64,000 nucleotides of DNA. Source: Granulicella sp. Its GTDB lineage: Bacteria > Acidobacteriota > Terriglobia > Terriglobales > Acidobacteriaceae. The notes beneath the pieces were generated by a model, which did no database searches, was not told where the DNA came from, and saw only the letters and a list, made by a program, of their open reading frames with translations. A program made the position numbers and the translations under genes. Positions 21,941-47,133 of the stretch are shown one piece after another. The stretch spans positions 96,001 through 160,000 of the forward strand of contig DAHWNL010000078.1 in assembly GCA_027339965.1 (NCBI GenBank), written 5' to 3'. Each line of letters opens with the position of its first letter. The first letter of the stretch is position 1.

Positions 21941-22876
21941 TCAGGCCGGCAAAGTCCGGGCACCATCCGCTCGCCGGTCCACCATCCGCAGATACTCCTG
22001 AGTCAAGAGCAGGCGAAGCGTCCGGTCCGTTTCTGGAGCGCAGGGGGTCTCAAGAGAGCGGCAGCGATCAATGGCCCGGCGCAGATCCCCGAGAAATGCA
22101 ACGCACGGCCGGCAACCCTCGATATGCTTCCGAATCTTTTCGCACCTTGGCTCCACGACCCGCCCATCCATGTACTCGGAAAGATTGGCGAAGATCTCCC
22201 GGCAGGTCTTTGGCTGGGGGCGCACCCCGGCCTGCCTGCCCCTGCGCTCGCGCACTGCCGCAGGAGCCACTCGGTTCTCTGGCTCGACTCCTTCGCCAGT
22301 CGTTGTGTCCGCGGCGGCGAGAAGCTTTCTCAGTTGCAGCCTCGCCCGGTGCAGCCTTACCCTTACCGTTCCCTGCTCTATTCCCAGCACTTGAGCGATC
22401 TGTTCGGTCTCCAAATCCTCCATATCATGGAGCACCAACACCATCCGGTAAGGTGGAGGCAGCATCAGGATCGCCTCCTGAAGGCGTTGGTTCTGTTCAG
22501 CTCTGGAAACCAGTGTCTCCGGATTGGGATTCGGATCCTTCAGTAACTGGCTCAGTTCGGATTCGGCGGGAGTCAGTTCACTCAACGAAAGCATCTGGAC
22601 TGGGGCTTCACTCACCTTGCGCCGCATCCTCCAACAGCGATTGCGCGCTACCTTATACAGCCACACCGCAAGCGCCTTCGGCTCAGTGATCTTGGCCAAA
22701 TGGGGTAGCGACCGCACAAAAACCTCCTGCGCGGTGTCCTCAGCGTCCTCCGTGTGGCCGCATATCTTCATGCTGAAGGCATACACAGTGTTCTGCAGCA
22801 GTTCCAAGGCTTCGTTGACCGCGGCGGCATCCTTTTGCTGCAGCAGGCCGGTTGCTCGAATCAGTTCCGGACGCAT
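21941..22876 (-). CDS. ECF sigma factor with fused C-terminal zinc-finger (ZAS/zf-HC2-like) extension
   Basis: Region 2 DAEDTAQEVF...WLYKVARN; region 4 GTVRVRLHRAR; C-terminal CREIFANLSEYMD...HIEGCRPC; TAGGAG RBS. Confidence 0.88.
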   Translation of the reverse strand: MRPELIRATGLLQQKDAAAVNEALELLQNTVYAFSMKICGHTEDAEDTAQEVFVRSLPHLAKITEPKALAVWLYKVARNRCWRMRRKVSEAPVQMLSLSELTPAESELSQLLKDPNPNPETLVSRAEQNQRLQEAILMLPPPYRMVLVLHDMEDLETEQIAQVLGIEQGTVRVRLHRARLQLRKLLAAADTTTGEGVEPENRVAPAAVRERRGRQAGVRPQPKTCREIFANLSEYMDGRVVEPRCEKIRKHIEGCRPCVAFLGDLRRAIDRCRSLETPCAPETDRTLRLLLTQEYLRMVDRRADGARTLPA

Positions 22877-24174
22877 TGATCTCCTATAGCCCCATCGTTC
22901 TATCCCAGCGCGCCCCAGTTCTCGGTGCGCTCCTTCCTCCATTCTAAAGCTCTGGCTTTCCTGCAATCGGGTCAGTCCCTTGATCTGGTATGAAAAAGAT
23001 CCGCTCAGGCGTCAGACGCTACGACCACCTGCTCGAAGGACTTCAACTGGTCAAAAATTCTTCCGATGCCGCCAAGGGCGAAGTTCTCGACGCGCGCTGC
23101 GCCGCTTTGTTCTTGCCCGGGATCACCTTGGTCCCGGTCTGATCAATGTCTATGCTGAAATGCTCATCGTGGTTCAACTCCAGCGGTGCGGAGCAGAGGA
23201 TACATCGCGGCCATCCGCTCACTTCCTGGAGCCCCCTCACGACCGCCCTCGATCCATTTGCCCACAAGTTGTCCAGAGTCAGGGATGGCTCTCGAACCAC
23301 AGCCAGCACTGCCCTGAACACGGCCTTCACGTTCAGGATGCACAAGAAGGGCGTCTTGCCCGGAAGCCGTTGTTGGCTCCCGCTGAAATCACGGTCCGCT
23401 TGGAACGAAAGGCATAGGCCACAACCACCGACGCGTTGGACTGGGCGCAAAGCCGGGGCTCCCACCCGCCCGTGCCTCCCTTCTACCCCGGGTAGCTATG
23501 GGCAACTCATTCGCTCTGCTTGCCCGCCGTCGTCATTCTGGCTTAGCCCATGACCATTCCCACTGCCCTTTGTCGCATTTCATCCAACGCGGCCCCGAGG
23601 CAAAGGCCTGCCGTGGCCCTTGCTCAGGCCATATTTAAGCCCGGGATCACGCACTCCTTCCATCCAGGATCAATAGGATCGCCCTACAAGGTAACGGCGC
23701 AGCTTTCTGCTTCACTGGACGCCCTGCCAGGATCGGTCATTCCTCTGAACGATAACCAATGTTTAAGAAGGAAGATTCATATCTCCCGGCGAGTATTTCA
23801 TCAAGCTCTCCACTCCCGTTGACCAACCTGTTCCGCCCTATGCAGTCACGATGCGCAGCCGGCTTCGAGGAGCAGCAACGAGAAATCCGCATTTGGACAA
23901 TGCACCAGCGATCCATCTTCCGTCACATGCATTCTGGTCCCCAACTCATTGTGTACAGACGCCGTAAGCATTCGGTGACGATAATCACATACAACCTTCC
24001 TTCGATCTTGATCTGATACATAGCAACGACACTGAGACGATCCGGTGCGCTTCAGTTGCATTCGATATTTCAAAGAGCTTGCAGGTGGAGGAGCGTTTTC
24101 GGACCGTTGGCTGAGATGCAGGTGCCGTGCCATACCTGGAACCAAACAACATTAAATTGATCGAAGGAGAAACG

Positions 24175-24756
24175 ATGAAGCGCATTCTTTCAGTAACTTT
24201 CGTGTTGCTGAGCACAGCAGTTGCCGCGCAGGCGGGAACGATCCACGGTAAGGTGACCGGCGCCAAAGGGCAGTCCGTCGTCTACATTGACGCTATTGCA
24301 GGCAAGACCTTCCCTGCCCCATCGCAGCACGCGGTGATGGATCAAAAGGGTTTGATGTTCGCGCCCCATATTCTGGCGATCCTGAAGGGAACCACTGTGG
24401 ACTTCAAGAACGAAGACAGCGTGGAGCACAACGTGTTCTGGCCTTCCATCAGTGGCAACAAGAGTCTTGGCCACAATATGGGAACCTGGCCGACCGGTCA
24501 ACAACGCAGTTTCAAGTTCGATACTGCTGGAATCGTTCCCCTCCTCTGCAACGTGCATCCCGATATGTATGGTTTTATCGTGGTTTCGCCGACGCCCTAC
24601 TATGCAATAACCGACAAAACAGGCGCCTTCACGATCTCCAATGTTCCCAACGGCACCTATAGCGTGACTGGATGGAACGAGCGAGACAAGATGCGCACCC
24701 ACACCGTTCAGGTTACGGTAAACGGCGATGTAACAGCGACCATTCCCCTGAAGTGA
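24175..24756 (+). CDS. Exported cupredoxin-domain protein (type-1 copper ligands) with carboxypeptidase-regulatory-like flanks
   Basis: Signal peptide; HNVF ... CNVHPDM (His, Cys, His, Met); AAGGAG RBS. Confidence 0.8.
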   Translation: MKRILSVTFVLLSTAVAAQAGTIHGKVTGAKGQSVVYIDAIAGKTFPAPSQHAVMDQKGLMFAPHILAILKGTTVDFKNEDSVEHNVFWPSISGNKSLGHNMGTWPTGQQRSFKFDTAGIVPLLCNVHPDMYGFIVVSPTPYYAITDKTGAFTISNVPNGTYSVTGWNERDKMRTHTVQVTVNGDVTATIPLK

Positions 24757-24826
24757 CAGGCGATCCTAGGGCGGGAAATCTCGCAATCCGGTTGCACCAT
24801 AGCGCCCCAGCAGAGAGACAGCCATC

Positions 24827-26800
24827 ATGCTGAAGAGATTTGAAAACAAAGCGGTCGACGCGGGATGGCTGAACAGCAATTTCCCCTGCATGATGGCATG
24901 CCCGGCTCATACCAATGCGGGACGGTATGTTGCGCTTATTGCGGAAGGCAAGTACGAAGATGCCTATCGCTATGCGCGTGGTCCAAATCCTTTGGCCAGC
25001 GTCTGTGGCCGGGTTTGCGCTCACCCCTGCGAAACTGCCTGCCGCCGCGGTGAGATTGATCGCCCTATCTCGATCCGGGCTCTCAAACGCTTTTTGACCG
25101 AGCGTCACGGACCTGAGTCCCGGCGGCCCGTTGATATAAATGCTGGTCGCAGACAGGAAAAGCTGCCCTTCAAAATTGCGATTGTGGGAGCCGGACCGGT
25201 TGGCCTTTCAGCCGCTCATGACCTCGCGGTGATGGGCTACTCGGTCACAATCTTTGAGGCCGCGCCGGTAGCAGGCGGCATGCTCCATCTCGGTCTACCG
25301 GAGTACCGGCTTCCTCGCAGTGTGATCCAGGCGCAAGTACGCGAAATCCTTGCAACCGGAGATATCACGCTAAAACTCAACCATGCCGCGGGCCGAGATT
25401 TCACCGTCTCCGGCCTGCGCAGTCAGGGCTTCGATGCGGTTCTGATTGCCGTCGGAGCCCATCGCAGCCGCGACCTTTCCATTCCAGGAGTTGATCTCGA
25501 CGGCGTCCATAAGGGCATCGACTTCCTCCTGAACGTCAATCTTGGCTATCAATTCACCATCGGCAAGAAAGTGGTCGTGATTGGAGGCGGCAATGTCGCC
25601 ATGGATGTGGCCCGTTCGGCAGCCCGAGAGGTGCTTCGCCAGCATTCCGCTGGAGTGCAGGAACAGGAACCTCTCCAGGAGAATGTCAACGCTGTCGCTG
25701 CCAAGGAGATGATGGACATCTCCCTTTCAGCCCTTCGCCTCGGCGCCAGTGAAGTTCATCTGGTATGCCTTGAAAGCCGAGCAGAAATGCCCGCATCCGA
25801 CGAAGAGATCGCTGAAGCCGAGGAAGAAGGAATCATCCTGCACCCCGGACTCGGCCCAAAGCGTATGATCGGCGGCCCTGACGGCGTTACCGCCCTCGAA
25901 GTGCTTAAAACCAAGCAAGTCTTCGATGCGGACGGCCGCTTTAATCCCACATTCTATGAAAACAGCGAGTTTCAACTCGATTGCGACACAATCATCATGG
26001 CCATCGGCCAGGCTCCACGGCTTGACTTCCTCCAGCCGCAGGATGGGGTTGAAATCTCACGCCGGGGTCTGATCGCCGTAGAACCGCGCACGCTCATGAC
26101 CACATCTCCGGGAGTCTTTGCTGGTGGCGACTGCGCATTTGGACCCCGCCTGATCATCGACAGCGTCGCGGACGGCAAGCGAGCAGCGATGGGAATCGAT
26201 GAGTACCTCCGAGGGACTCGTCATCCGGAGCCGACGATCGAGGTCGAGGTCCTGCAACGCCACAGCATGCCGCTCAATCTCCTGGATCTTGTACGGAACG
26301 ACCCTCCCCTGCTTCCCCTGGACCGTCGGACCGGCGTCACCGAGGTCGAAACGGTTTACGACGAAGAGACAGCCCGGGCAGAAGCGCAACGCTGCCTACA
26401 CTGCTGGGTTAACACGATCTTCGAGGGCAGCCCCCTGGATGGAAGTCAATGCATCCTCTGTGGTGGTTGCGTGGATGTGTGCCCAGAGAATTGTCTTGAG
26501 CTGGTAAGCCTGGATCGCTTCGATTTCCAGCCAGCAGTCGTTGAACAGCTTGTTGCCAACGAGAGCCTCCTCACCGTGGAGCTGGATGATGTTCGAGCGA
26601 AGGAGCTTGGCACGATCTCCGGCTCCGTAATGCTGAAAGACGAGACGCGGTGCATCCGTTGCGGCCTCTGCGCAGCACGATGCCCGGTGGGCACGATCAC
26701 CATGGAATCCTACAACCTGATCCCGGCCGAACCGACCGGGCTCATCTCCCCTGAATCCATCGAAGCGCCTCTGCGCGCGACGTTGGCAAACAGAAAGTGA
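24827..26800 (+). CDS. Fe-S flavoprotein NAD(P)H oxidoreductase (GltD/NfnB/SudA/DsrL superfamily) with C-terminal 2x[4Fe-4S] ferredoxin
   Basis: CMMACP...CGRVCAHPCETAC N-domain; GAGPVG and GGGNVAMD Rossmann motifs; CILCGGCVDVCP and CIRCGLCAARCP. Confidence 0.88.
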   Translation: MLKRFENKAVDAGWLNSNFPCMMACPAHTNAGRYVALIAEGKYEDAYRYARGPNPLASVCGRVCAHPCETACRRGEIDRPISIRALKRFLTERHGPESRRPVDINAGRRQEKLPFKIAIVGAGPVGLSAAHDLAVMGYSVTIFEAAPVAGGMLHLGLPEYRLPRSVIQAQVREILATGDITLKLNHAAGRDFTVSGLRSQGFDAVLIAVGAHRSRDLSIPGVDLDGVHKGIDFLLNVNLGYQFTIGKKVVVIGGGNVAMDVARSAAREVLRQHSAGVQEQEPLQENVNAVAAKEMMDISLSALRLGASEVHLVCLESRAEMPASDEEIAEAEEEGIILHPGLGPKRMIGGPDGVTALEVLKTKQVFDADGRFNPTFYENSEFQLDCDTIIMAIGQAPRLDFLQPQDGVEISRRGLIAVEPRTLMTTSPGVFAGGDCAFGPRLIIDSVADGKRAAMGIDEYLRGTRHPEPTIEVEVLQRHSMPLNLLDLVRNDPPLLPLDRRTGVTEVETVYDEETARAEAQRCLHCWVNTIFEGSPLDGSQCILCGGCVDVCPENCLELVSLDRFDFQPAVVEQLVANESLLTVELDDVRAKELGTISGSVMLKDETRCIRCGLCAARCPVGTITMESYNLIPAEPTGLISPESIEAPLRATLANRK

Positions 26801-26807
26801 GCCAACT

Positions 26808-27299
26808 ATGACCACTACAAAAGACACCTATATCGTTCAGGAAGGCGCGGTGCTCGATCGCAGGGAGTTTTTCACCAAGCTCGGTCTCGGCTCTCTGGGC
26901 GTTGCAGCCGTTGGTACATTGGCGTTTTACTACCAGTACCTTTCACCCAACGTACTCTTTGAACCATCCCCCATTGTGAACGCCGGAGCTATTGATCGGT
27001 ATCCTCTGGGCTCCGTCACGCTCGATGTCAACTCAGCAATCTACCTCGTTCATATAGCCAGAGGCTACTTCTCTCTCAGCGCTATTTGCACTCACCTGGG
27101 CTGTATGACCGCGTGGAAGCCCGAGCTCAACATGATCGCATGTCCATGCCATGGAAGCCGCTTCAACCGCGAAGGGCAAAAGCTGGCAGGTCCGGCGCCT
27201 AAACCTCTTCCATGGCTAAAAACCTGGTTGAGTGACGATGGAGAACTCATGGTCGATCGCTCCATTACGATTCCACAGTTCCAATTCTTGAGGGTATAA
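26808..27299 (+). CDS. Rieske [2Fe-2S] protein of a Rieske/cytochrome b complex
   Basis: DRREFF Tat-type anchor; CTHLGC and CPCHGS boxes. Confidence 0.93.
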   Translation: MTTTKDTYIVQEGAVLDRREFFTKLGLGSLGVAAVGTLAFYYQYLSPNVLFEPSPIVNAGAIDRYPLGSVTLDVNSAIYLVHIARGYFSLSAICTHLGCMTAWKPELNMIACPCHGSRFNREGQKLAGPAPKPLPWLKTWLSDDGELMVDRSITIPQFQFLRV

Positions 27300-27302
27300 A
27301 AG

Positions 27303-28094
27303 ATGCCGGGCACCATCGAAACCTACTTCGACAAACTCGAACGCACGCGGGTGTGGCGGTCGATCTTCCGCAGCGGCAAGGGCACAAGTACGCTTCACAA
27401 TGCGTTGGCCATTCAGCAAAACGTATTTCTGCACCTGTTCCCCACCAAAGTTCGTAAACGAATGCTCGGGCTGGGCGCTACCTGGTACCTCGGAACACTT
27501 ACGTTGGGCACATTCATCGTTCTAGTCGTCACCGGCATTCTCTTGATGCTCTACTACCATCCATCCGTGCCACGTGCATATTCCGATGTAAAAGATCTCC
27601 AATTTGTCGTTTCTTCAGGTCTTTTCCTGCGCAATCTGCATCGCTGGTCGGCCCATGCGATGGTTTTTCTTGCCTTTGCACACATGTTTCGCGTCTTTTA
27701 CCGCGGAGCATACCGTACCCCGAGAGAATTCAACTGGGTGATCGGGGTCGTTCTTCTTCTGGTAACTCTTCTGCTCAGCTACACCGGCTATCTGTTGCCC
27801 TGGGATCAACTCGCCTTCTGGGCAATCACTGTCGGGACGAACATCTCTTCGGCAGTGCCACTTATCGGCGACAAAATACGCTTTATGCTGCTGGGCGGAC
27901 ATCTTGTGAATGCCAATGCCTTGCTTCGCTTTTACGTTCTGCACTGCGTGATTCTACCGCTCACCGCAGTTCTCTTTTTAGCCGTTCATTTCTGGCGAAT
28001 CCGTAAGGACGGTGGTCTATACGTGCGGGAGACCGAGCCCGGAGTCGCAAATTCGGACCAGGACCTTTCAAATCAGGAGCAGGAATCGCGATGA
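27303..28094 (+). CDS. Cytochrome b6-like (split cytochrome b, N-terminal part)
   Basis: LHRWSAH...[26 protein letters not shown]...VHFWRIRK (four heme-b His). Confidence 0.93.
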
Positions 28095-28795
28095 CGCCTC
28101 CAAAAGACTACTCGGCCGAAGTCAGCTCGAACATGCAGGTTTCCCAACGGCGCGTTCTTTTCGTAACGCGGCGCACCTCTCCTCAGGTTAAAGCGTACGA
28201 CGAGGAGCGAGTGCAGACCTCTCCCGAGGTTCTGATTCGAGCTCTGCTCGCAGTCGAGTGCCTCCTGATTGCCCTGGTACTGATGTCATTGTTCTTCAAC
28301 GCACCGTTGGAAGGAGTTGCCAATCCGACCAACACGCCTAACCCAGCCAAAGCTCCGTGGTACTTTCTTGGGCTGCAGGAGATTTTGCACTACTTCCCAC
28401 CTGTTGTTGCCGGGGTTCTCATTCCTGGATTGCTCGTTACCGCACTCATCATTATTCCCTATTTTGACATCAACATCGAGGCAGATGGCCTCTTTCTCAA
28501 GAATCGCGAGCGGCGTCTGATGCTCTCGATGGCCGTTGCGGGTGCGCTGTCCGTCTTCTTCCTGTTTTTCAAGGTATATGTGGCGCTGGCGCCAACGTTG
28601 CTCGTGACCGCATTCGTGTTGCTTGCGGCGTTCAGCCCTCCAGAGTCGTCAGGACGCTTTCGACGGTATCTCGCACGAAGACCCGTCTTCTGGTGGATTA
28701 TGACCTGGTTTCTATGTGAACTCATCGTTCTCACGGCAGTAGGCACCTTCTTCCGCGGCCCCGGTTGGTCGTGGGTCTGGCCATGGAGGAGTTAG
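28091..28795 (+). CDS. Subunit IV-like (cytochrome b C-terminal part)
   Basis: [21 protein letters not shown], the PEWY-equivalent region; ATGA overlap with cyt b6. Confidence 0.88.
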
Positions 28796-30853
28796 ATGCA
28801 AACGACAAATAAGGGCTCATTCTCCTCGATCAGGGCATTCTTGTGCGACCCTTTCCTCATGTTTGGCGTCGTCAGCGTGTTCTTGCTCTTGCTGTTGATG
28901 GTGGCCCCGGCAAAGGATTACTTCAGCCAGTGGCGTAGCTATCAAAGGCAATACCTTAACCTCATCCGCAATCGCGGCGATGCGGTAACGTTGCTTCGGC
29001 ATTTTCAAGGCGGAATCCAGCAGATTTGGATTCCTCAGTTGGGCGTGATCGATCGTTGCCAGACCTGTCACGTTGGCGTGGCGGAGGCAAGCCTCTCCGA
29101 TGTGAAAGAGCAGCCGTTCCGGGCACATCCACCGATTCCGCACAAGCTGACCGAGTTCGGGTGTGTGATATGTCATCGTGGACAGGGTGCGGCGACGACC
29201 CTATCGGAGGCGCACCACAGCAAAATGGCCGGCGAAGAGCCCATCCTTCCCATGCGCTACATTGAGGCATCCTGCGGCCAGTGTCACCACGAACCCCTCG
29301 AGGGCACGCCCAAACTCAACCAAGGCCGTCTGCTGCTGGCTCGCTATGGATGCGTCAACTGCCACGCCATCAATCTTCCCGATGGCAGCACCATACAAGC
29401 CACGGACAATGCTCCGCCGTTGACTCACATCGCCGACAAAACCACCCGGGAGTGGATTTACGCCTGGCTCAAAGATCCAACGAGTTATTCCGCGTCATCC
29501 ACCATGCCCAACTTTCTGTTTAGCGACGCCGACGCGAGTGACATCTCCGCATTTTTGATTGCAAACAGTACACCACAATCGGGCGATTCGATGGCGTATG
29601 CAGCAACTTCGAGTGGATCTGGTTCCGATTCATCTGCGGGCGCCGTCCTCTATGGCGAGTCGTTCTGCGCATCCTGCCACGCGACCCAGAATGAGGCCGG
29701 CAATCTGGTCGGTGGAGATCTTGGACCTGAACTGACCAACGTCGGAACGAAAGTCAAGCCAGGTTGGCTCATGGCATGGCTGAAGGATCCACACACGTAC
29801 GACCCGAAGACCAAGATGCCGCAGTATCGCTGGACCGACCAACAACTCCAAACCCTGACTGCGTACGTTGCCAGCAAGACAGATCCGGATTTTGTCGCCA
29901 ATGTTCATCTGCAACCTGCGACCCAGGAGCAGATTGCACATGGTAAAAAGCTGGTCATCGAGTATGGCTGCGCTTCATGCCATGAGATTAGAGGGATACC
30001 GAAGCCAGACAACTTCGCGCCCGATCTCAGCCGAGTCGGGAGTAAGCCTCTGGTTCAGCTCATCTTTTTACCGGGGATGGAGCAGAGCCTGCCGGCCTAC
30101 CTCGCAGAGAAAATCCGACAGCCCCGAGCCTTTGGGCCTTCGCTTCATATGCCGAAGTACAGCTTTAGCAGCAGTCAGATCGACGACTTGACCACTGCGC
30201 TGCTCTCCTTCACGAACCGCAGCTTCACACTCCCTCCAAACTTGCAGATCCCTGCCGTCCGGGACACAAACTATCAGCCGGCAGGCCATGCGGGTCAGTT
30301 AATGGCGAACATCAACTGCCTGAGCTGCCATCGCATTAACGGCAACGGAGGCACAATGGCCCCCAACCTTAGCTGGGAGGGCTCATCCGTTCAACAACCG
30401 TGGCTTGACGCCTTCCTCAAGAACCCCAACACTTTACGCCCGACCCTTATTCGGCGCATGCCCAAATTCAACCTCACGGATTCGGAGCGTACTGTGCTGA
30501 CCAACTACATCCTAGCCGTCTACCAGACACCTGCATTCGAACGTGACGAGATGCCACTGACTGGGTACTCGCCGGATCTCGTCGAGAAGGGCCGACAACT
30601 GTTTTATTCCAAGTACGCCTGTCAGTCCTGCCACATCGTAAATCCCAACCAGGACAAAGGCTACATCGGCCCCACACTGACAACCGTTGGCGCTCGTCTC
30701 AACGCCGCTTGGATCTACCACTATCTGAAAGATCCTCAGGCGATACGGCCTGACACCATTGAGCCCAATCAACACATGAGTGACGACGATGCTCGTGCAT
30801 TAACCGCATTCCTGATGGCGCAGAAGACGATCGCAGGGCAGGGGGCAAAGTGA
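28796..30853 (+). CDS. Membrane-anchored octaheme cytochrome c
   Basis: N-terminal TM helix; 8 CxxCH (CQTCH, CVICH, CGQCH, CVNCH, CASCH, CASCH, CLSCH, CQSCH); repeated class-I-like W-L-x-D/N-P...MP domains. Confidence 0.9.
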   Translation: MQTTNKGSFSSIRAFLCDPFLMFGVVSVFLLLLLMVAPAKDYFSQWRSYQRQYLNLIRNRGDAVTLLRHFQGGIQQIWIPQLGVIDRCQTCHVGVAEASLSDVKEQPFRAHPPIPHKLTEFGCVICHRGQGAATTLSEAHHSKMAGEEPILPMRYIEASCGQCHHEPLEGTPKLNQGRLLLARYGCVNCHAINLPDGSTIQATDNAPPLTHIADKTTREWIYAWLKDPTSYSASSTMPNFLFSDADASDISAFLIANSTPQSGDSMAYAATSSGSGSDSSAGAVLYGESFCASCHATQNEAGNLVGGDLGPELTNVGTKVKPGWLMAWLKDPHTYDPKTKMPQYRWTDQQLQTLTAYVASKTDPDFVANVHLQPATQEQIAHGKKLVIEYGCASCHEIRGIPKPDNFAPDLSRVGSKPLVQLIFLPGMEQSLPAYLAEKIRQPRAFGPSLHMPKYSFSSSQIDDLTTALLSFTNRSFTLPPNLQIPAVRDTNYQPAGHAGQLMANINCLSCHRINGNGGTMAPNLSWEGSSVQQPWLDAFLKNPNTLRPTLIRRMPKFNLTDSERTVLTNYILAVYQTPAFERDEMPLTGYSPDLVEKGRQLFYSKYACQSCHIVNPNQDKGYIGPTLTTVGARLNAAWIYHYLKDPQAIRPDTIEPNQHMSDDDARALTAFLMAQKTIAGQGAK

Positions 30854-31584
30854 TGAAAAGGACTCTATTGGCCGTTGTAGTGCTTCTGTCCACTATGGTC
30901 TCAGGTTGTAATCACAAGAGGGCTTTGCCGCCCGCACTGGCCGCCAAAGCGAATGGTACCGCCATCGTGGTGGTTAGTGGAGATAAGCAACTCGGGTCAA
31001 TCGGATCCCAGCTTCCCCAACCTCTCATCTTGCAGATCAATGACGACCAGGGAAATGCGGTGACTGGAGCCAACGTGCAACTGTACGGACCTCCCGGCGT
31101 CACCTTTACCCCGCAGCAAATTCTCACTGACGACAATGGGCAAGCGACCTTCAAGGTAACCATGGGTGGAATCAATGGCCGGTACGAACTTACCGCATCT
31201 TCTCAGGATGCGCACGGCAGGACATTCAGTCTCACGATTCCAGAGTTTGCGGCAGGTTACCAACAGGAGGTAGGTTACGAAGTCAATCAACAATACTGTT
31301 CGCGGTGCCACAACCCCGACTCAACTTCGGAGCAGGTTTCTAACTATGACAATCTCGCTGTCAAGCCGCACCGCTTTTCCGACGGATTGATCTACAACAA
31401 CATTTCAGAGACTGATTTGACGACCATCATCTCGCACGGAGGCGCTGCAATGAATCGTTCAGCACTGATGCCGCCCTACGGGTGGACGCTCAACAAGGCG
31501 GAGGTTCAGGGAGTGATTGCTTACATTCGGCTGGTTTCTGATCCGCCCTATGTTGCTCCAGGTGTCGTGTATCAGAAGCATTGA
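30850..31584 (+). CDS. Lipoprotein with Ig-like domain and monoheme cytochrome c
   Basis: Lipobox VSGC; Big-like segment (DDQGNAVTGANV...TDDNGQA); CSRCH plus distal LMPPY. Confidence 0.8.
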   Translation: MMKRTLLAVVVLLSTMVSGCNHKRALPPALAAKANGTAIVVVSGDKQLGSIGSQLPQPLILQINDDQGNAVTGANVQLYGPPGVTFTPQQILTDDNGQATFKVTMGGINGRYELTASSQDAHGRTFSLTIPEFAAGYQQEVGYEVNQQYCSRCHNPDSTSEQVSNYDNLAVKPHRFSDGLIYNNISETDLTTIISHGGAAMNRSALMPPYGWTLNKAEVQGVIAYIRLVSDPPYVAPGVVYQKH

Positions 31585-31763
31585 AATCACGCAAATGGTG
31601 GATTCGTAACGCAGGCAGAAGTGCCGACAATCTCTTTCCTCAGTACCAGGTTGAATCCCTGCCGGCACTCCGTGCACCTTGAGACGCTTCATCCCACCAA
31701 ATGGTGGAACCGGGAATATTGGCACGATCGTGCGCAATTGATTGATTCAAACTAGGAGGATAT

Positions 31764-33122
31764 ATGAACATCTCACCTTCGGGGACCAGGACTCTGCTAT
31801 CAGTGGCAGCACTTTCAGTCCTGATCTCCGCATTTCCCAGGGATGCAATGGCCGTTCCCAGTTATGCGCGCCAAACTGGTCTTCCCTGCAACGGCTGCCA
31901 CTATGATCCGCCGGAACTGAACCCCGCTGGACGGCTTTTCAAGCTACTGGCCTACGTGCAGCGATCGAGCCTTCTCGGCAGCATAACGGCAAACAGCGGC
32001 GGGAAAAGCGCTGGGCTGGATCTTCTCCAGGCACTGCCTCTTGCTGTCATGTTGGAGACCTCCTACACTTCGCTGAACAGCCCGGAGCCAAACACGCAAA
32101 ATGGCAACTTTGAGTTTCCTCAGGACATTTCCCTGTTTCTTTCTGGGGCCTGGACGAGCAATATCGGCAGCTTTCTGCAGGTTACGTATGACACTCAAGA
32201 GGATCACTTCGGTATAGACAATACCGACATTCGTTTCGCAAACCAGACGAAACTGGATGGCAAGGATCTGGTCTACGGTCTCGACTTCAACAACAACCCG
32301 ACAGTAGAAGATCTTTGGAATGATACGCCAGCCTGGGGTTTCCCGTGGATTCAAAGTGACTTTGCACCAACGCCAGCCGCTGTCCCAATCATCGATGGCC
32401 CTCTGGCCCAGGATGTTGCCGGATTCGGCGGCTACGCCATGTGGAATCGCCATGTGTATTTGGATGTGGCGGCCTACACATCAGAGCACGTAGGCGCTCC
32501 ACAACCGAACTCAGGCAATGGATTCTCGTACAACATTCGCAATGCGGCCCCCTACTGGCGACTTGCCTACCAGGGGCATACCACCACGCTGCAGTATGAG
32601 GTCGGCACTTATGGCATGCATCTGCATAGCAGCCCCAATGCAGTTGTCGGTCCAGAAGATGATTACACCGACTACGCTTTTGATATGCAACTTGACCAAT
32701 CGCTGTTCCGCACAGATGTACTTTCCTTTCGCGGTGATTTCATCCATGAGAACTCTGACTTGCTGGGAAGCCTAACCCAAGGATTGGCTTCTCAAGGAGA
32801 ACACCATCTCAACACGGGAACGGTTAACGCCGAATATCATCTTGGCAACAAATATACTGGCACATTCCAATGGTTTGAGACCAGTGGGACAACAGATCCT
32901 CTGCGCTATTCTCCTGCTCCTGTTACCGGCAGCGCCAATGGAAACCCGAGGAGCGCTGGATACATCCTCAACTTCTCATACTGGCCGTGGCAGAACCTGC
33001 AAATCTCGCCACAGTACACCGCATATACCCGTTTCAACGGCGGTTCGACGAACTACGATGGCTCTGGGCGCAACGCGAGCGCCAACAACACGTTCTATCT
33101 GGATGTTAAGTTCCTCTTTTGA
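31764..33122 (+). CDS. cyc2: Cyc2-like fused cytochrome c / outer-membrane beta-barrel
   Basis: Signal peptide then VPSYARQTGLPCNGCHYDPPELNPAGRLFKL, matching the Cyc2 signature PxFARQTGxxCxxCH...PxL...GRxFK; aromatic beta-strand-rich body; C-terminal Phe. Confidence 0.82.
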   Translation: MNISPSGTRTLLSVAALSVLISAFPRDAMAVPSYARQTGLPCNGCHYDPPELNPAGRLFKLLAYVQRSSLLGSITANSGGKSAGLDLLQALPLAVMLETSYTSLNSPEPNTQNGNFEFPQDISLFLSGAWTSNIGSFLQVTYDTQEDHFGIDNTDIRFANQTKLDGKDLVYGLDFNNNPTVEDLWNDTPAWGFPWIQSDFAPTPAAVPIIDGPLAQDVAGFGGYAMWNRHVYLDVAAYTSEHVGAPQPNSGNGFSYNIRNAAPYWRLAYQGHTTTLQYEVGTYGMHLHSSPNAVVGPEDDYTDYAFDMQLDQSLFRTDVLSFRGDFIHENSDLLGSLTQGLASQGEHHLNTGTVNAEYHLGNKYTGTFQWFETSGTTDPLRYSPAPVTGSANGNPRSAGYILNFSYWPWQNLQISPQYTAYTRFNGGSTNYDGSGRNASANNTFYLDVKFLF

Positions 33123-33449
33123 AGCACTGCATGCGCAGCAATCGTATGCTTTGAAAGCGCTGTAGGAACCAGCTTGGATGAAGATCCATTCGCTTGAAAT
33201 GCGGCGCTTACACCCAACCTCAATTCAAGCTCCGGGGAAGAGGAATTCTTGTTTCGGTACAAATTCGCATTGCCTCGGCCGGGGATCGAATCTTGAGAGA
33301 ACCCTTTCTGGCGGGTGAGGGCGGAGGATGCAGTTGAAAGCTGAGCGGCGGTTCTACCCGATTCTGCAGGAATCGAGTTGCCAACCCTTTACTTACAACG
33401 AGAACCGCCGTGAAAAGAGCTTGCCGCACCATCCGCAAGCAAGTGAAAC

Positions 33450-33900
33450 TGAACCTGGACAAGACGCTGGTTAGAGCCGCCATTCACGAAGATGGAAAGG
33501 GCGTGTGAAGAAGCCTTATTCGGCAGCTCCTCGATGCTTCCGCGGCCAGCTTGATCCCCTTTGTTCAGGGCTCGATAGCTGCGGGAAGCCTGGCTCATAC
33601 GAATGGCTAGCAGGGCTATTCGGCGCTGAAGGGCAACGGTTTCCAGCATCAGATCACCTATCTCAAAGGGAGGCCGGAAGCCGCTTCGGAGTTGTTGCCG
33701 CGAGTTCATCTGGGCGATCTCACTGCTGAAGCGATGGCTGATGGAAACCCCTCAGGGAGCGGTAAACCACAAACATCTGGACTACTTGGATGAGGTCGCC
33801 TTCCGGATCAACCGGCGCACCTCACGGAGCCTGGCAAGCTGTTTTATCGTTCGGCACAACAATCTGGGGCCGTCTATCCAGTTACTCGCCATCAAATCGC
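33450..33900 (+). pseudogene. IS1595-family (ISXO2-like) transposase remnant
   Basis: Broken frames read KTLVRAAIHEDGKG, LDASAASLIPFVQ...HTNG*QGY, LLPRVH, LLKRWLM and QGAVNHKHLDYLDEVAFRINRR; boundaries approximate. Confidence 0.75.
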
Positions 33901-34024
33901 TCACCCCGCCGAAGAAAAACCGGTCGAAAAGCACAGCCGCTGCTGGATTTTGACGGGGCCGGGTGCAACCGAATAACCTCAGAGTGGCATCGGTCCATTG
34001 TATCGATGCAAACGAGGAGGATAG

Positions 34025-35383
34025 ATGAACTTTTCACCTTCGGGAGCCAATACAGTTCTATCGGTAGCAGCGATTTCGCTCCTGATCTCCGCATTCCCCA
34101 AGGGTGCAATAGCTGTCCCCAGTTATGCGCGCCAAACCGGCCTCCCGTGCATCGGGTGCCACGATGACCCGCCGGAGTTGAACCCTGAGGGGCGGCTTTT
34201 CAAGTTGCTGGCCTATGTGTAGGGAGCGAGCTTCCTCGGCTCCATAAATGCAAAGAGCAGCGGGAAGAATGCTGGTTTGGATCTTCTCCACGCACTGCCT
34301 CTTTCTGTCATGTTGCAGACCTCATACACTTCACTGAACAGTCCAGAGCCAAATACCCAAAATGGGAACTTTGAGTTTCCCCAGAACATCTCCCTGTTTC
34401 TCTCCGGTGCCTGGACGAGCAACGTCGGCAGTTACCTTCAGGTTACATACGACACCCAAGCCAATCACTTCGGTATGGACAATACCGACATTCGGTTCGC
34501 AAACCAGACAAAGGTAGATGGTAAGGATCTTGTTTACGGACTTGACTTCAACAACAATCCGACGGTAGAAGATCTCTGGAACGACACGCCGGCATGGGGC
34601 GTCCCATTGATTCAAAGTGACTTTGCGCCAACGCCGGCGGCTGTTCCCATCATCGATGGCCCTCTGGGCCAGGAAGTTGCCGGATTCGGTGGTTACACCA
34701 TGTGGAACAGCCATGTGTATCTGGACGTGACAGCCTACACCTCAGAGCACATTGGCGCCTCACAACCAAACTCCGGAAATGGTTTCTCGTACAACATCCG
34801 TAACGCTGCACCCTACTGGCGTCTTGCCTACCAAGGACAGACAGCCACGACGCAGTATGAGATCGGAACCTATGGCATGCATATGCGCAGCAGTCCTAAT
34901 TCAGTCGTCGGTCCCCAGGATGATTACACCGACTACGCTTTCGACACCCAAATTGACCAATCGGTGTTCCAGACAGACGTGCTCTCGTTCCGAGGCAATT
35001 TCATCCGGGAAAACTCCGATTTGCAGGCCAGCCTGAACCAAGGATTGGCTTCTCAAGGAGGAAACCATCTGAATACTGGCACGGCTAACGTCCAGTATCT
35101 TATTGGCAGCAAATATTCAGGTACATTTGAGTGGTTTGAAACAAACGGCACAACCGATCCTCTGCGTTATGCTCCCGCTTCTGTTACCGGCAGTGCCAAT
35201 GGAAACCCGAGGAGCGCCGGATACATTCTCAACTTCTCGTACTGGCCATGGCAAAACCTTCAAATTTCGCCCCAATACACTGCGTATACACGTTTCAACG
35301 GTGGTTCGACGAACTACGATGGTTCTGGACGTAACGCCAACGCCAATAATACGTTCTACCTGGATGTGCAGTTCCTCTTTTGA
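34025..35383 (+). pseudogene. cyc2: Second Cyc2-like gene interrupted by a single in-frame TAG at codon 66
   Basis: Collinear with 31764-33122; CIGCH heme motif; TAG at 34220-34222 where copy 1 has CAG (31959-31961); the frame continues to DVQFLF. Confidence 0.85.
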
Positions 35384-35533
35384 ATTGCCGTTTGCGCGGC
35401 AATCAAATACCTGAAAACACCGTATGGGCCAGCCCGAAAGGAGGTCCATTTGATTTGCTCACCCGGCAAGGAAGGTTTAGGGTGACCTGCTACCTGAAAG
35501 CTCTACCAGTTGGAACTGGAGTCCTCTCGTAAT

Positions 35534-36911
35534 TGACCCGCCCCGCATGACTAAGCCAGAAGCGGCTGGAAAATCCGGCTTGCGTGGTTCGGTTCGGCCC
35601 GTGTTGACGGGCGGATTTGCAGATACTGTAGCTCAAGTGAGTGTCTCAAGTAACAGCGTTGAACCACTGTCGTTCTGCGCTGTGACAGCAGCCGTCGTCG
35701 TGCCATGGAAAAGTGGGAGGCGAGTAGCTGCTTCCACTTTTCCACGGCTGCAGATAGCCGCGAACTCCGCCGGTGTGCGGTCGTCCAGCGCAGAGTGCGG
35801 GCGCTGGTGGTTTGTAGTCGCGTCGCCAGAGGTGCAGCTTCCGGCGAGCGTCAGCCAGGTTCAAGGACACCTCCACGTTCAGGCACTCGTCGCGCAGCTT
35901 TCCGTTGAAGCTCTCGATGTAGTCGTTCTCTACCGGCCTGCCCGGGGGGATGAAGTTCAGATGCACACCGTTCCGATACGCCCAGTGGTCGAGCGCTTTA
36001 CTGGTAGATTCCGTTTCGTTGTCCACAGTGATCGACTCCGGCAGGCCGCGTTGCAGCAGCGCCTTATCCAACGCCGTTGCGACCTCCTCCCCGCTCAGTG
36101 TGTTGTCTGTCAGCAGCGTCACACACTCCCGCGTGTACTGGTCCACTACCGTCCGCACACGGATCCAACGCCCGTCCGGCAACCACTGCGCCACGAAGTC
36201 CATCGACCGCTTCTGGTCTGGCCGCAACGCCGATCCCTGCGCCACACGATGCCGCTGCGCGCGCTCCTTGCGCTTCTTCGTCCTCACGATCGGGCCCTCC
36301 TCGACGTACAGTCGGTAGATGCGCTTGGCGTTGACCTTCCAGCCTTCGCGCTTCAACAGCACGGTCAGCCGCCGGTAGCCGTAACGCACGCGGTTGCCGG
36401 CCAGCTCCCTCAGACGGATACGCAAGGCCTCCTGCCGGTCGCGGTGATGCTCGTAGCGCAGCGTCATCCGCTCGACTGAAATCAGCTGCGACACGCGCCT
36501 CTGGCTCATCCGGTGGACCTGCTGTGCCCACTCGGCCGGCTCGCGCCGCGCACGAGGCCTTACAGTTTTTTGCGACGATCTCCTGCGACACATGACGGTC
36601 CGGGTTCGGGTCCGCTACCAAACGCTTCGACTTCGCGTTCTCTTCACGCAACTGGAGCAGCTCCTGAAGCTCGTTCAGCCCCAACCCGGAAGACTTCTTC
36701 TTCCGCAAATAAAACGTCTGCTGGCTGATGCCGTGCTTCCGGCAAGCCTCGACCACCGTGTCGCCAGACGTGGTCTCCCGCAGCACCCGCAGAATCTCTT
36801 CCTCGCTGTGTCCACCCTTACCCGTACAGGTTCTCCTCTCTTGCTTCTCAGAGAACCACAACAGGCCAAATCCTCAACGTCAACTTGGCCTAGTTTTTGG
36901 GTTTTGGGTCA
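35534..36911 (-). mobile_element. Degenerate IS3-family element (orfA/orfB)
   Basis: TG...CA ends with imperfect IRs (TGACCCgccccgcatgACTAaGCCA vs TGACCCaaaacccaaaaACTAgGCCA); orfA HSEEEILRVLRE...CRKHGISQQTFY; orfB RYGYRRL, SMDFV, DQYTREC, IESFNGKLRDECLN; A6 tract at the orfA/orfB junction; decayed DN(G)xEF motif. Confidence 0.88.
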
Positions 36912-37070: not shown

Positions 37071-37952
37071 GTGCACGCAAACCTCCAGGATGGCTTCGCC
37101 GATTCCCCGGATGCTTTAAAGGACGGGCAGCGGCAACGAACGATCATCCGGGTTCTCGGTATCGAAGTGGGTGGGGATGAGTTCGTCACCATGGCAGGGC
37201 CATGCTCGGTTGAAACCGAGTCCCGGCTCATGGCAACCGCTCATCATGTTCGCCGCTGCGGCGCGCGCATCCTTCGTGGCGGCGCGTTCAAGCCGCGCAG
37301 CTCCCCCTATTCCTTTCAAGGTCATGGTCTTCAGGCGCTCAGGACGCTCGCCCGCGCCCGAGCGGAGTTTGGACTGGCCATCGTCACCGAAGTCATGTCG
37401 GAAAGCGATGTCCCTTTGGTGGCTGAGTACGCTGACATACTGCAGATTGGCTCGCGCAGCATGGAAAATCTTCTCCTGCTCAAGGCTGCAGCGCAATCCG
37501 GGCGACCGATCCTTCTGAAGCGAGGCATGATGGCTACGGTTGCCGAGCTACTCTACGCGGCGCAGTTGATCCTGGAAGAGGGCAACCCCAACGTCATTCT
37601 CTGTGAACGAGGCATCCGCACCTTTGAAACATCGATGCGCAACACCTTCGATGCCGCGGCCATCGCATTGCTCAAGCAGATCTCGCACCTGCCCGTGATC
37701 GCCGACCCAAGCCACGCGGCCGGGCATCACGATCTGGTTCCCGCTTTGGCCCGCATTGCCGCGGCCGCGGGAGCGGACGGCCTGCTGGTTGAAGTGCACC
37801 CCGAGCCCGAGCAGGCGTGGAGCGATGGGGAACAATCCTTGGATTTTGCTGAATTCGAAGCCATGATGATTTCGCTGGACCCTCTTCTGGCGCTGCGCTC
37901 GACGGTTCCGGGCGCGCCCGTGGATGCAGGGTTCGTGGAGGTTGGTGGGTGA
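37071..37952 (+). CDS. aroF: 3-deoxy-7-phosphoheptulonate (DAHP) synthase, type I-beta, catalytic barrel only
   Basis: [39 protein letters not shown] and EVHP...SDG motifs. Confidence 0.88.
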
Positions 37953-39367
37953 GGGGTTCTTTCTTCTTGTTTTTAGCCGCTCTCAGTGCTTTTGCGCCTT
38001 CGCCCTCACGTGCCCTGCCGCCCCGCATAGTCCACCAGACGGAAGCCGATTTTCTTGTCACCGCTGCTCCCGTCTACGTCCCCCTGGCAGAGATGCACGG
38101 GCGGGAGCGATTCCCCCGCGGAGCACGGTTGCTGCTGGTCCACAACGGCAAGGCCGCGCCCCTCGTGACCGGCTTCGCAGATACCGCGGACCCCGATCTC
38201 TCCTTCGGTGGCCAGAGGGTGCTCTTTGCCGGCAAGCGCACCACCGCCGATCCTTGGCAGATCTGGGAGCTCAACCTCAAGAACGGCTCGTTGCGGAACG
38301 TCATCAGCACCGGAGTCGATGCCGAGCGACCGCTGTATCTGCCGGGCGGACGTATAGTCTGGGCGCAACGCACGGCCTCTGGATTCCGGATCGAGTCGGC
38401 TCCGGACGGCCATCCTCCCAAGGTACCGTTCCTGAACCCGACCGCCGGTCCCGGAGTGCTGCCCCTCACCTACATCCAGACCAACGCCTTTCCCACCACC
38501 ATCCTGGCCGACGGCCGCATTCTCTTCGAGTCCGGCTATCCGCTCGGAGAAGGCGCAGCCACTGACTTATTTGCGGTCTACGCTGATGGCTCGGGCGTGG
38601 AGGAACTCCGTCCCTATCAAGGCCGCTCCCGCTGGGGTGGCTCGCAACTGGCCTCCGGTGACGTGGTGTTCTCCCATGGAAGGTCGCTGGCGAGGCTCAC
38701 CTCCGCGCTGCTGCAGGAGGAGCCCATTGCCGCCCCCCAGGCCGCCTACGCCGGCACAATCGAGGAGACGCCTTCCAGCGAATGGTTGCTGAGTGCGCGC
38801 GCGACCGGCCAGACGCACTATGCAATTGATCTGTGGAAGCCCGGAACCGCTGCACTCCAGACCATCCTTTCAGAACGCGGCGAGGATCTTGTCCAGCCTG
38901 TCCTGCTGGCGCCTCGTACCCCGCCCAGACGATTCCCTTCAGACCTCCACCCTTGGAACTACGCCAATCTTCTGGCCCTCGACTCGCGCCTGTCCATGGA
39001 AGGCAATCTGAAATTGGCGCCCGCATCGGTCCGCCTGGAGAGCCAGGATCCGAATGGCCACATCCACAACAACGGAACCGCTCCGATCTATCCCGACGGC
39101 TCCTTCTTTGTGAAGGTTCCTGAAAACCTCCCGATTCGCTTCCTCCTCCTCGATAAAAATGGCGCCGTTCTGCGTCGCGAACGCGGGTGGTTCTGGAGCC
39201 GCGGCGGCGAACAGAGGATCTGCGTCGGATGCCATACGGGACCGGCACTCTCTCCTGAAAATCAAGTGCCTGAAGTGCTGCTGCACACCACTACCCCGAT
39301 GGACCTCACGCTTGACTCACCTCGCACACCCACGCGCACTGAGGTGCAGAAAGGTAATACGAGATGA
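37949..39367 (+). CDS. Exported hydrazine-synthase-alpha-like protein (TolB-like propeller plus HZS-alpha middle domain, one CxxCH)
   Basis: Signal peptide; DPDLSFGGQRVLFAG...WQIWE and PLYLPGGRIV propeller blades; DGSFFVKVP...PIRFLLLD...GEQRICVGCH middle-domain pattern. Confidence 0.72.
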   Translation: MRGSFFLFLAALSAFAPSPSRALPPRIVHQTEADFLVTAAPVYVPLAEMHGRERFPRGARLLLVHNGKAAPLVTGFADTADPDLSFGGQRVLFAGKRTTADPWQIWELNLKNGSLRNVISTGVDAERPLYLPGGRIVWAQRTASGFRIESAPDGHPPKVPFLNPTAGPGVLPLTYIQTNAFPTTILADGRILFESGYPLGEGAATDLFAVYADGSGVEELRPYQGRSRWGGSQLASGDVVFSHGRSLARLTSALLQEEPIAAPQAAYAGTIEETPSSEWLLSARATGQTHYAIDLWKPGTAALQTILSERGEDLVQPVLLAPRTPPRRFPSDLHPWNYANLLALDSRLSMEGNLKLAPASVRLESQDPNGHIHNNGTAPIYPDGSFFVKVPENLPIRFLLLDKNGAVLRRERGWFWSRGGEQRICVGCHTGPALSPENQVPEVLLHTTTPMDLTLDSPRTPTRTEVQKGNTR

Positions 39368-46964: not shown

Positions 46965-47133
46965 GTCCCCGCTTCGCCTACGTAGCAAAAGAACCACTGG
47001 CTGGAGCCAGTCCGGAGAAAGTGGCCGCATAGGGAAGACAACCTCCTTCCTCCCGGGGACGGTCTCCAGCGGTCGGGTACCTCTGTACCACTGGTCGTGC
47101 TGGCAGATTGGCGTTTGCAGCGCCGGCAAACGC

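Follow-up and report, generated by a model that had tools for sequence, protein, structure and literature searches.

Two Rieske/cytochrome b (R/b) complexes of the anammox bacterium Kuenenia, R/b-2 (Kustd1480-1485) and R/b-3 (Kuste4569-4574), contain an NAD(P)-oxidoreductase flavoprotein, and what such complexes do has been an open question ever since anammox genomes revealed them. Anammox bacteria are slow-growing and out of reach of genetic tools, so that all evidence on these complexes is indirect; bifurcation of quinol electrons to NAD(P)+ has so far only been proposed, and only for this group. The AlphaFold3 models of Hauser et al. (2025, PMC12954380) feature a haem cN, four iron-sulphur (FeS) clusters leading to FAD, haem-to-FeS-to-FAD steps of at most 15 Å and a five-helix subunit IV, and include a new interfacial haem b, for which His43 (or His62) from each cytochrome b copy is the ligand proposed from the modelling. 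A second reference point is the APWY clade of cytochromes b, named after one of six major patterns of the quinol-oxidizing (Qo) site; it spans several phyla, and one of the three cytochromes b in Ca. Solibacter usitatus is reported to belong to it (Kao and Hunte, 2014, PMC4122944). Here we describe an operon within a 64,000-nucleotide stretch of Granulicella sp. DNA (assembly GCA_027339965.1, contig DAHWNL010000078.1, positions 96,001 to 160,000 of the forward strand; the window, in whose numbering coordinates are given) that very probably encodes a flavoprotein-linked Rieske/cytochrome b complex of the APWY clade.

The operon lies on the plus strand and comprises eight genes in the order cupredoxin, flavoprotein, Rieske protein, cytochrome b6, subunit IV, octahaem cytochrome c, monohaem lipoprotein and Cyc2-like protein. 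Its core consists of a 657-residue cytoplasmic flavoprotein resembling NfnB and GltD (24827..26800; Pfam, NCBIfam), a 163-residue Rieske [2Fe-2S] protein (26808..27299; Pfam Rieske), a 263-residue four-helix cytochrome b6 (27303..28094; Pfam Cytochrome_B, 153.8 bits), a 234-residue subunit IV (28091..28795; Pfam Cytochrom_B_C) and a membrane-anchored octahaem cytochrome c (28796..30853). The last, which showed eight CxxCH motifs and one N-terminal transmembrane helix in motif and hydrophobicity scans, occupies the place of cytochrome f/c1. By open reading frame (ORF) coordinates, the spacings from the flavoprotein to the monohaem gene are 7, 3, -4, 0 and -4 nt, with the subunit IV start overlapping the cytochrome b6 stop by 4 nt. 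The original prediction had placed the flavoprotein stop 7 bp before the Rieske gene, and the ORF ends and starts (26800 and 26808) agree.

The flavoprotein starts with a Fer4_20 FeS domain, which is followed by a Rossmann core for FAD and NAD(P) (Pyr_redox_2) and, C-terminally, by a 2x[4Fe-4S] ferredoxin domain at residues ~537-626 (26435..26704; Pfam Fer4_7 and Fer4). PRK12771 is its best NCBIfam model (453 bits, below the cut-off of 516), and its nearest solved relatives, NfnA, NfnB and GltD, are NADPH/FAD/2x[4Fe-4S] proteins. NfnB and GltD share with it the N-terminal FeS domain and two Rossmann domains, whereas the window protein adds the dicluster ferredoxin with its long insert and has as genomic partner a membrane cytochrome complex, not NfnA or GltB. 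The two dicluster motifs, C542-x2-C-x2-C-x3-CP and C609-x2-C-x2-C-x3-CP, have ~55 residues inserted between them, and all eight cysteines are invariant among 26 aligned flavoprotein sequences. A hydrophobicity scan found no signal peptide and no transmembrane or hydrophobic segment in the protein, which is presumably located on the cytoplasmic face.

We used two loci of one Ca. Brocadia genome, L159 and L136, as orthologues of the Kuenenia R/b-2 and R/b-3 genes, respectively. L136, located in a genome scan seeded with the Cys-type relatives described below, runs Rieske, flavoprotein, cytochrome b6, subunit IV, a 362-aa protein and a 588-aa protein, matching the gene order of Kuste4569-4574; L159 runs Rieske, cytochrome b6, flavoprotein, subunit IV and a 940-aa octahaem protein, matching Kustd1480-1485. 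The window cytochrome b6 is 52% identical to each Brocadia type. Its flavoprotein is 41% identical to the R/b-3-type protein (global alignment) and 38% to the R/b-2-type protein (tblastn) over the full length, with all FeS cysteines kept in both; subunit IV is 40% identical to the R/b-3-type protein, and a 14-residue stretch of it is common to both Brocadia types. The octahaem protein matches the 940-aa octahaem of R/b-2 (Kustd1485) type with a tblastn E of 3e-58. On these alignments, the complex is a true homologue of both flavoprotein-bearing anammox complexes.

The likeness extends to the architecture of the subunits. Both the anammox and the window complexes have a split, b6-like cytochrome b with an N-terminal WxSxFRxG...LHxxP extension and an equivalent of His43/His44, a subunit IV with the 14-residue stretch and probable extra helices, a Ser after Rieske box II (S-x-F as in Kustd1480), a full-length flavoprotein with all FeS cysteines, and a multihaem c protein in place of cytochrome f/c1, here the eight-CxxCH protein homologous to that of R/b-2. 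There are also differences. Both Brocadia cytochromes b read WCMGG where the window protein reads WYLGT, leaving the latter without the haem-cN cysteine; a subunit IV glutamate kept in Brocadia is lost in the window's own family; a 14-residue insert between cytochrome b helices C and D is absent from the window protein; and the extra subunit IV helices are placed elsewhere. The flavoprotein gene follows the Rieske or cytochrome b gene in anammox bacteria, whereas in the window it precedes the R/b genes and carries two insertions. The window also has a cupredoxin gene and no HAO-like octahaem, and its host is an aerobic or acid-mine acidobacterium without an anammoxosome.

A twin-arginine signal/anchor (DRREFF) is present in the Rieske protein, whose box I reads C94-T-H-L-G-C99 and whose box II reads C112-P-C-H-G-S117-R118-F119. 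The reading CPCHGSRF bears out the earlier observation that box II is followed by SRF and not SxY. S-x-F occupies this position in 26 of 28 orthologues, the others being one SRY and one short, odd sequence with NRF. The best match in the PDB is 9rk4 (E 4.4e-24), an entry with a Kuenenia-style name; a second such entry, 9rk3, carries S-G-F, and from their box-II sequences we take the two to be the crystal structures of PMC12954380. The Kuenenia Rieske fragments in that paper were measured at +303 and +335 mV, the higher one being without the Tyr. The Tyr is absent from the window protein too. An older correlation put the S-F type at 200-230 mV (PMC3509893).

Cytochrome b6 of the window carries the four haem ligands His113, His127, His214 and His229, aligned to those of b6 and invariant in 21 sequences, and a conserved 45-residue N-terminal extension. 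As the earlier analysis had suggested, we aligned it with Kuenenia/Brocadia and b6f proteins, which revealed the homology to the anammox complexes and placed Tyr62 (27486..27488) opposite Cys35: within ATWYLGT, W61-Y62 aligned to Y34-C35 of spinach, Synechocystis and Mastigocladus b6, and the reported absence of the haem ci/cN cysteine thus held. The position was Y, W, G or F in 27 of 27 acidobacterial orthologues and Cys in none of them, nor in any of six cbb3-type loci (below). Among 150 cytochrome b representatives at 50% identity, 121 had a residue in this column (G 56, C 22, Y 15, R 13, W 6, others 9). Absence of the cysteine is therefore common in the wider family as aligned, and it is its total absence that marks the acidobacterial flavoprotein-linked forms. 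Since the anammox complexes keep the cysteine, its loss is not required for flavoprotein coupling.

Among solved structures, the best full-length match of this cytochrome is to the b6f group of cyanobacteria and chloroplasts (spinach b6, E 5e-44), which, together with b6c of Firmicutes, shares the arrangement of a four-helix b6 and a subunit IV. Relative to these, the window complex is without Cys35 and hence without haem ci, has APWY versus PEWY or PDWY and an octahaem protein versus cytochrome f, and adds a 27-residue longer N-terminus and a linked flavoprotein; its periplasmic partner is likely a blue-copper protein, a counterpart of plastocyanin. In NCBIfam, cytochrome b, subunit IV and the octahaem protein are best named by ExtP, ExtQ and ExtS of Geobacter ExtOPQS. 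Because all three scores are under the curated cut-offs (263.3 vs 290, 57 vs 150 and 83.7 vs 100, respectively), the window genes are related to ExtOPQS but not equivalogs.

In the N-terminal extension, His44 (FLHLFP; 27432..27434) aligns with His43 of the Brocadia/Kuenenia R/b-3 cytochrome b, and Arg234 with Brocadia Arg247. His44 is invariant in 27 of 27 orthologues. Both histidines of the LHxHP motif are invariant in 15 Cys-type representatives, and the second is lost in the window's own family only. The larger motif to which His44 belongs, W-R/K-S-x-F-R-x-G ... F-L-H-x-H-P-x-K-V at residues 17-50 (27351-27452), is conserved across the aligned APWY-clade cytochromes b with or without a flavoprotein; if it holds an additional haem, as in the Kuenenia models, such a haem would be general to the clade.

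Subunit IV shows four strong hydrophobic segments and a probable fifth at ~140-160 in a Kyte-Doolittle scan. The Qo motif APWY (28352..28363) occupies residues 88-91, inside a 14-residue segment; HMMER aligned K-A-P-W-Y to bovine K-P-E-W-Y, confirming that APWY stands in place of PEWY with the Glu lost. APWY was found in 25 of 26 orthologous acidobacterial proteins, the other having AAWY. A different subunit IV glutamate, which we take to be the position of the axial haem-cN ligand of the Firmicute complexes, is present in 76 of 76 Cys-type relatives and both Brocadia proteins, and is replaced by A, V, T or I in nine acidobacterial sequences, the window's included. We considered the losses of the ci cysteine and of this glutamate as one coupled event and rejected the idea, as it holds only in the window's own family (the nine non-Glu sequences), the other 18 keeping the glutamate.

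This remodelled n-side, with the haem-cN cysteine lost in all 27 orthologues and the glutamate lost in the window's own family, is an argument for a mechanism in which the cytochrome b core is the membrane anchor of an NAD(P)H dehydrogenase, passing electrons by way of FAD, FeS clusters and b haems to quinone or directly to the periplasmic haems, with no bifurcation. Dibrova et al. (2017, PMC5600118) describe four-helix cytochromes b as anchors of protruding FeS oxidoreductases, place flavoprotein-linked complexes there and picture the ancestral cytochrome bc as a 'membrane-anchored dehydrogenase'. For a simple dehydrogenase, however, the complete and strongly conserved Qo machinery of the window (the disulphide-box Rieske protein, the APWY motif, subunit IV and the octahaem protein) would be needless, and NAD(P)H-to-quinone flow was judged wasteful by Hauser et al. 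(PMC12954380) where proton-pumping NADH dehydrogenases exist. We consider a plain dehydrogenase distinctly unlikely.

To place the motifs in their family, we compared the window with 80 related Cys-type loci, whose cytochromes b are 43-55% identical to that of the window and which come from phyla including Planctomycetota, Vicinamibacteria, Bdellovibrionota, Omnitrophota, Nitrospinota and Poribacteria. A full-length flavoprotein gene lies nearby in only one of them (Brocadia). The flavoprotein-less cytochromes b carry the ci cysteine in 76 of 78 cases, and APWY occurs in 77 of the 78 subunit IV proteins extracted from relatives without a nearby flavoprotein gene, which supports the grouping with the APWY clade. 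Of ten Cys-type representatives, none was named in a cluster look-up. The window complex shares with the APWY clade its Qo motif, the split gene, its status as one of several cytochromes b per genome (there are three cytochrome b genes in this genome, one of the others with PEWY) and a patchy spread over many phyla. The CxGG motif of the clade, where present, is mostly WCMGG, versus Y, W, G or F at the Cys position in the window subclade; a Geobacter p-cresol-linked complex belongs to the clade, and the passages on the clade in PMC4122944 do not discuss a flavoprotein. APWY, S-x-F and His44 are clade features and not signs of coupling, APWY and His44 being equally conserved where no flavoprotein gene lies nearby. 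The part of the original prediction that likened the operon to the anammox complexes therefore stands as homology (Rieske 9rk4, cytochrome b 52%, flavoprotein 38-41%, octahaem E 3e-58), and the part that read APWY and S-x-F as special adaptations of a flavoprotein-linked complex does not; its striking features are mostly known clade hallmarks. Their conservation indicates that APWY, the non-Cys ci site and S-x-F are selected states, not damage or chance.

We then examined how the flavoprotein is linked to R/b genes in 301 Acidobacteriota genomes, matching linkages by hand among the matches listed; the counts are lower bounds. The flavoprotein query had a match at E 1e-50 or better in 149 genomes, many of these being other GltD-like proteins (a tally of 143 of the 301 genomes includes the unpublished genome G024, on which the other claims do not rest). 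A homologue lies within ~7 kb of an APWY-type cytochrome b in at least 61 genomes: at least 37 have a full-length match with cytochrome b within ~3 kb, at least 17 more have a partial match beside a longer cytochrome b, and at least 14 have a cbb3-type link, seven of which are already counted. Forty loci were fetched, 28 of them with a flavoprotein at least 45% identical by tblastn (at least 46% in the genome search). The Rieske gene directly follows the flavoprotein gene in all 28, and cytochrome b comes next in 27, seven of these loci having an unsplit cytochrome b of 414-440 aa. The feature is real and conserved, and it looks functional.

Eleven of the 12 remaining fetched loci have a second architecture, L073 (30% identity) being unlinked. 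It starts with Rieske and an unsplit APWY cytochrome b that has Gly as its ci residue, and continues with heptahaem c, CcoN, CcoO, a small ORF, a paralogous flavoprotein, DsbD-like, CcoG and CcoI (Pfam on L164; e.g., L164:4007-17093). Rieske, cytochrome b, multihaem protein and flavoprotein follow in this order in six of six fetched loci of this kind (L160-L165), and cco genes were seen in L163 and L164. These cbb3 superclusters tie the flavoprotein family to R/b complexes once more and point to O2 as the electron sink. The third form, in at least 17 further genomes, has a divergent flavoprotein matching only from residue ~105-116 or ~297, directly upstream of a cytochrome b in an open frame of ~450-850 aa (e.g., G241:C27:132524-134776 and G191:C3:476443-478694). 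Cultured Acidobacteria are known to join complex III and oxidase genes in superoperons (PMC8407424); the word 'oxidoreductase' was not found in the main text of that paper, nor 'glutamate synthase' or 'FAD-dependent' in its supplementary tables. Term searches of the literature found no text on the flavoprotein as part of acidobacterial cbb3 superoperons or on an acidobacterial flavoprotein-linked complex; ten Brink 2013, Dibrova 2013, Kartal 2013 and de Almeida 2016 lay outside the search and may already show such operons. Short cytochrome b genes near such oxidoreductases 'in many other cases' are mentioned by Dibrova et al. (2017, PMC5600118).

The persistence of this linkage bears on whether the flavoprotein is merely co-transcribed with an ordinary Q-cycle complex and could be a soluble NADPH-dependent reductase of other use. 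The family does have soluble relatives in Nfn and GltD, and 79 of the 80 close Cys-type relatives have no such gene nearby. A complex prediction of two cytochrome b6 copies (21-row alignment) with flavoprotein residues 465-657 (26-row alignment), run without subunit IV, haems, the remaining flavoprotein or controls, scored 0.00 in both runs and is uninformative on binding or docking. A casual association nevertheless fits poorly with a linkage that recurs, tightly spaced and in three different gene orders, in at least 61 of the 301 genomes, with flavoprotein and cytochrome b trees that recover the same subclades, and with the reported comigration of the Kuenenia subunits (cited in PMC12954380). 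Without the canonical haem cN on the n-side, a Qi site of the ordinary b6 type is also unlikely. We hold an unlinked Q-cycle complex to be the least probable of the possibilities considered, and physical attachment of the flavoprotein to the membrane core to be likely.

The genes flanking the core supply candidate electron partners. The cupredoxin (24127..24756; Pfam Copper-bind, 25.2 bits vs a cut-off of 21.2) is a periplasmic blue-copper protein with a C-terminal CarboxypepD_reg-like domain; its true start is likely an internal Met ahead of the signal peptide, and H..C-x2-H-x2-M (LLCNVHPDM) provides candidate type-1 Cu ligands. Homologues immediately precede the flavoprotein gene in 18 of the 28 orthologous loci. 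The monohaem cytochrome c lipoprotein (30850..31584), which has an Ig-like (Big_1) domain, starts 4 nt before the end of the octahaem gene, and its homologue follows the octahaem gene in 18 of the 28 loci. The Cyc2/Cyt572-like gene (31764..33122) starts 180 nt past the monohaem gene and is probably accessory to the operon. Its product has a signal peptide, one N-terminal CxxCH, ~400 residues and an aromatic end as in outer-membrane barrels, and had no match in Pfam or NCBIfam; its closest Atlas clusters bear the name 'cytochrome c family protein', and the nearest Pfam-bearing one has Porin_O_P on 20% of its members, which is a lead only.

Taking these parts together, we find the balance roughly even on the best overall explanation, namely that the complex is the acidobacterial counterpart of the two anammox NAD(P)-oxidoreductase-bearing complexes and works by bifurcation. 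The operon encodes its Tat-exported Rieske protein, split cytochrome b6 and subunit IV and membrane-anchored octahaem c, along with an NfnB/GltD-like cytoplasmic subunit for NAD(P), FAD and four [4Fe-4S] clusters. Menaquinol would be oxidized at the APWY Qo site. The first electron would run downhill through the Rieske protein to the octahaem and monohaem c proteins or the cupredoxin and on to a high-potential sink, which would be O2 by way of an oxidase or, possibly, Fe(III) outside the cell by way of the Cyc2-like protein. The second would pass haems bL and bH, possibly an interfacial haem b on two His44 residues, then the C-terminal and N-terminal FeS clusters and FAD to NAD(P)+, with no haem cN in this acidobacterial version. 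Transfer between the b haems and the flavoprotein FeS chain is suggested by analogy with Kuenenia: the exit of haem bH electrons through the flavoprotein FeS domains instead of a Qi site, put forward in the original prediction, agrees with the published Kuenenia proposal (PMC12954380) and is to that extent strengthened. Net reduction of NAD(P)+ by quinol bifurcation, by the same analogy, is a tentative assignment to which we give slightly less than an even chance.

In the reverse, confurcating mode, a high-potential donor (Fe(II) through the Cyc2-like protein, cupredoxin, c haems and Rieske protein) and NAD(P)H (through FAD, FeS clusters and b haems) would together reduce menaquinone at Qo. 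Kao and Hunte, citing the Geobacter metallireducens p-cresol cluster, argued that APWY is typical of reverse-running complexes (PMC4122944), and in Acidithiobacillus a bc1 complex running backwards is accepted as the uphill route (PMC13741234). The Cyc2/Cyt572-like and cupredoxin genes flanking the operon would suit an iron donor, as would the habitats: near-identical DNA (0.96-0.97 of sampled words) was found in runs from one study each of mine drainage, of sediment and of an unlabelled metagenome, and two of these samples may be the source; parts of it were found in wastewater and mine-tailings studies. No RNA run was among the matching runs listed. Against the reverse mode, NAD(P)H would be spent lifting iron electrons only to the level of quinol, with no obvious benefit; a full-length Cyc2-like homologue adjoins only 5 of the 28 orthologous operons; in the paralogous clusters the wiring leads to a cbb3 oxidase, which takes up electrons; and the Kuenenia S-x-F Rieske protein at +335 mV fits the forward scheme (PMC12954380). 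The forward, bifurcating direction is favoured because the homologous Kuenenia Rieske proteins are unusually high-potential for a menaquinol oxidizer and the paralogous clusters are wired to an oxygen reductase. It is favoured further because Acidobacteria generally use menaquinone. Confurcation is, in our estimate, unlikely, and still the most probable of the competing mechanisms.

Several observations weigh against the bifurcating counterpart reading. His44, the WRSxFRxG motif and APWY are just as conserved in relatives without a nearby flavoprotein gene, no member of the APWY clade has been characterized according to PMC4122944, the same source argues for reverse operation, and the anammox function is itself only proposed. 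The subunit IV glutamate is kept in 18 of 27 acidobacterial flavoprotein-linked sequences, the window's counted, so that some form of n-side site may survive beyond the window's own family. The spread is patchy: the adjacent type occurs in 7 of 22 other genomes of that family, and the single other sampled genome of the same genus has neither the flavoprotein nor the cytochrome b gene. In a quick maximum-likelihood cytochrome b tree of 108 sequences (careful search unfinished, midpoint root only), the 28 acidobacterial flavoprotein-linked sequences form one clade (Shimodaira-Hasegawa-like approximate likelihood-ratio support 97), the two Brocadia sequences fall near the base of the other side and the two groups are not sisters; the flavoprotein label needs three changes on this tree, of which well-supported branches force at least two. 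The anammox flavoproteins sit on long branches with other paralogues, and no common origin was resolved. The association may have arisen twice.

The flavoprotein tree did unite the adjacent and cbb3 types in one acidobacterial group (support 81), the cbb3 type being a clade within it (support 100). On the two quick trees, a single origin of the flavoprotein link (one gain with losses) and two gains are both possible. Two further anammox-labelled loci emerged from the comparison. L141, from a Ca. Brocadiales metagenome-assembled genome (MAG), has cupredoxin, Rieske, cytochrome b6 (54% identity), subunit IV, octahaem and monohaem genes in the order of the window, without a flavoprotein gene. L110, from a record titled Ca. 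Kuenenia stuttgartiensis, has a cytochrome b near-identical to those of Planctomycetaceae/Pirellulales MAGs (branch length 0-0.014) and a 1526-aa multihaem protein and a 498-aa subunit IV in its operon; from its sequence it looks like a mis-binned contig and not an anammox complex.

The surroundings of the operon contain further redox genes and mobile elements. A second Cyc2/Cyt572-like copy at 34025-35383 is broken between 34222 and 34277 into two frames, and a third homologue (L001:1-405), 50% identical over the last 135 residues, immediately precedes the Rieske/cytochrome b genes of PEWY type in this genome. A hydrazine-synthase-alpha-like gene (Pfam HZS_alpha) occupies 37949-43178, and a second copy, 78% identical, is found at G000:C81:1959-3374. 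We considered a functional link between the R/b operon and this hydrazine-synthase-like operon 5 kb downstream: HZS-alpha-like genes occur in 4 of the 301 genomes, the other three being without the window R/b type. Given this rarity, the lack of co-occurrence elsewhere and the insertion sequence (IS) element between the two, no functional tie is indicated. An IS3-type (rve) transposase (35646-36593, minus strand) and an IS66-family transposase fragment (46706-47788, minus strand) bracket modules of the redox island. An extracytoplasmic function sigma factor fused to a zf-HC2 anti-sigma-like domain (21941-22966, minus strand), 1.2 kb upstream, is a possible regulator of the operon. A promoter and terminator scan of 23000-35600 gave fewer sites than shuffled sequence and nothing usable.

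What is new here is a haem-cN-free, cupredoxin-associated, flavoprotein-first form of a kind of complex that is itself known and uncharacterized. With a homologous complex widespread among Acidobacteria, in at least 61 of the 301 genomes sampled, and with cultured aerobes in that phylum, the bifurcation hypothesis becomes directly testable. Being without haem cN, the acidobacterial complex is a natural experiment on how electrons leave haem bN and how n-side quinone reduction is avoided, the least understood step of the published model; if the reading is correct, the natural loss of haem cN would show that it is dispensable for the flavoprotein route. The cbb3-wired variant names a plausible exergonic partner reaction. 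It is possible, although rather doubtful, that quinol bifurcation to NAD(P)+ is widespread in ordinary aerobic soil and mine-water Acidobacteria, in a haem-cN-free form that would send one menaquinol electron to O2 (through cupredoxin, c haems or cbb3) or Fe(III) and the other through an interfacial His44 haem b and four FeS clusters to NAD(P)+. In that case, the cell would form NAD(P)H from quinol at no cost in proton-motive force.

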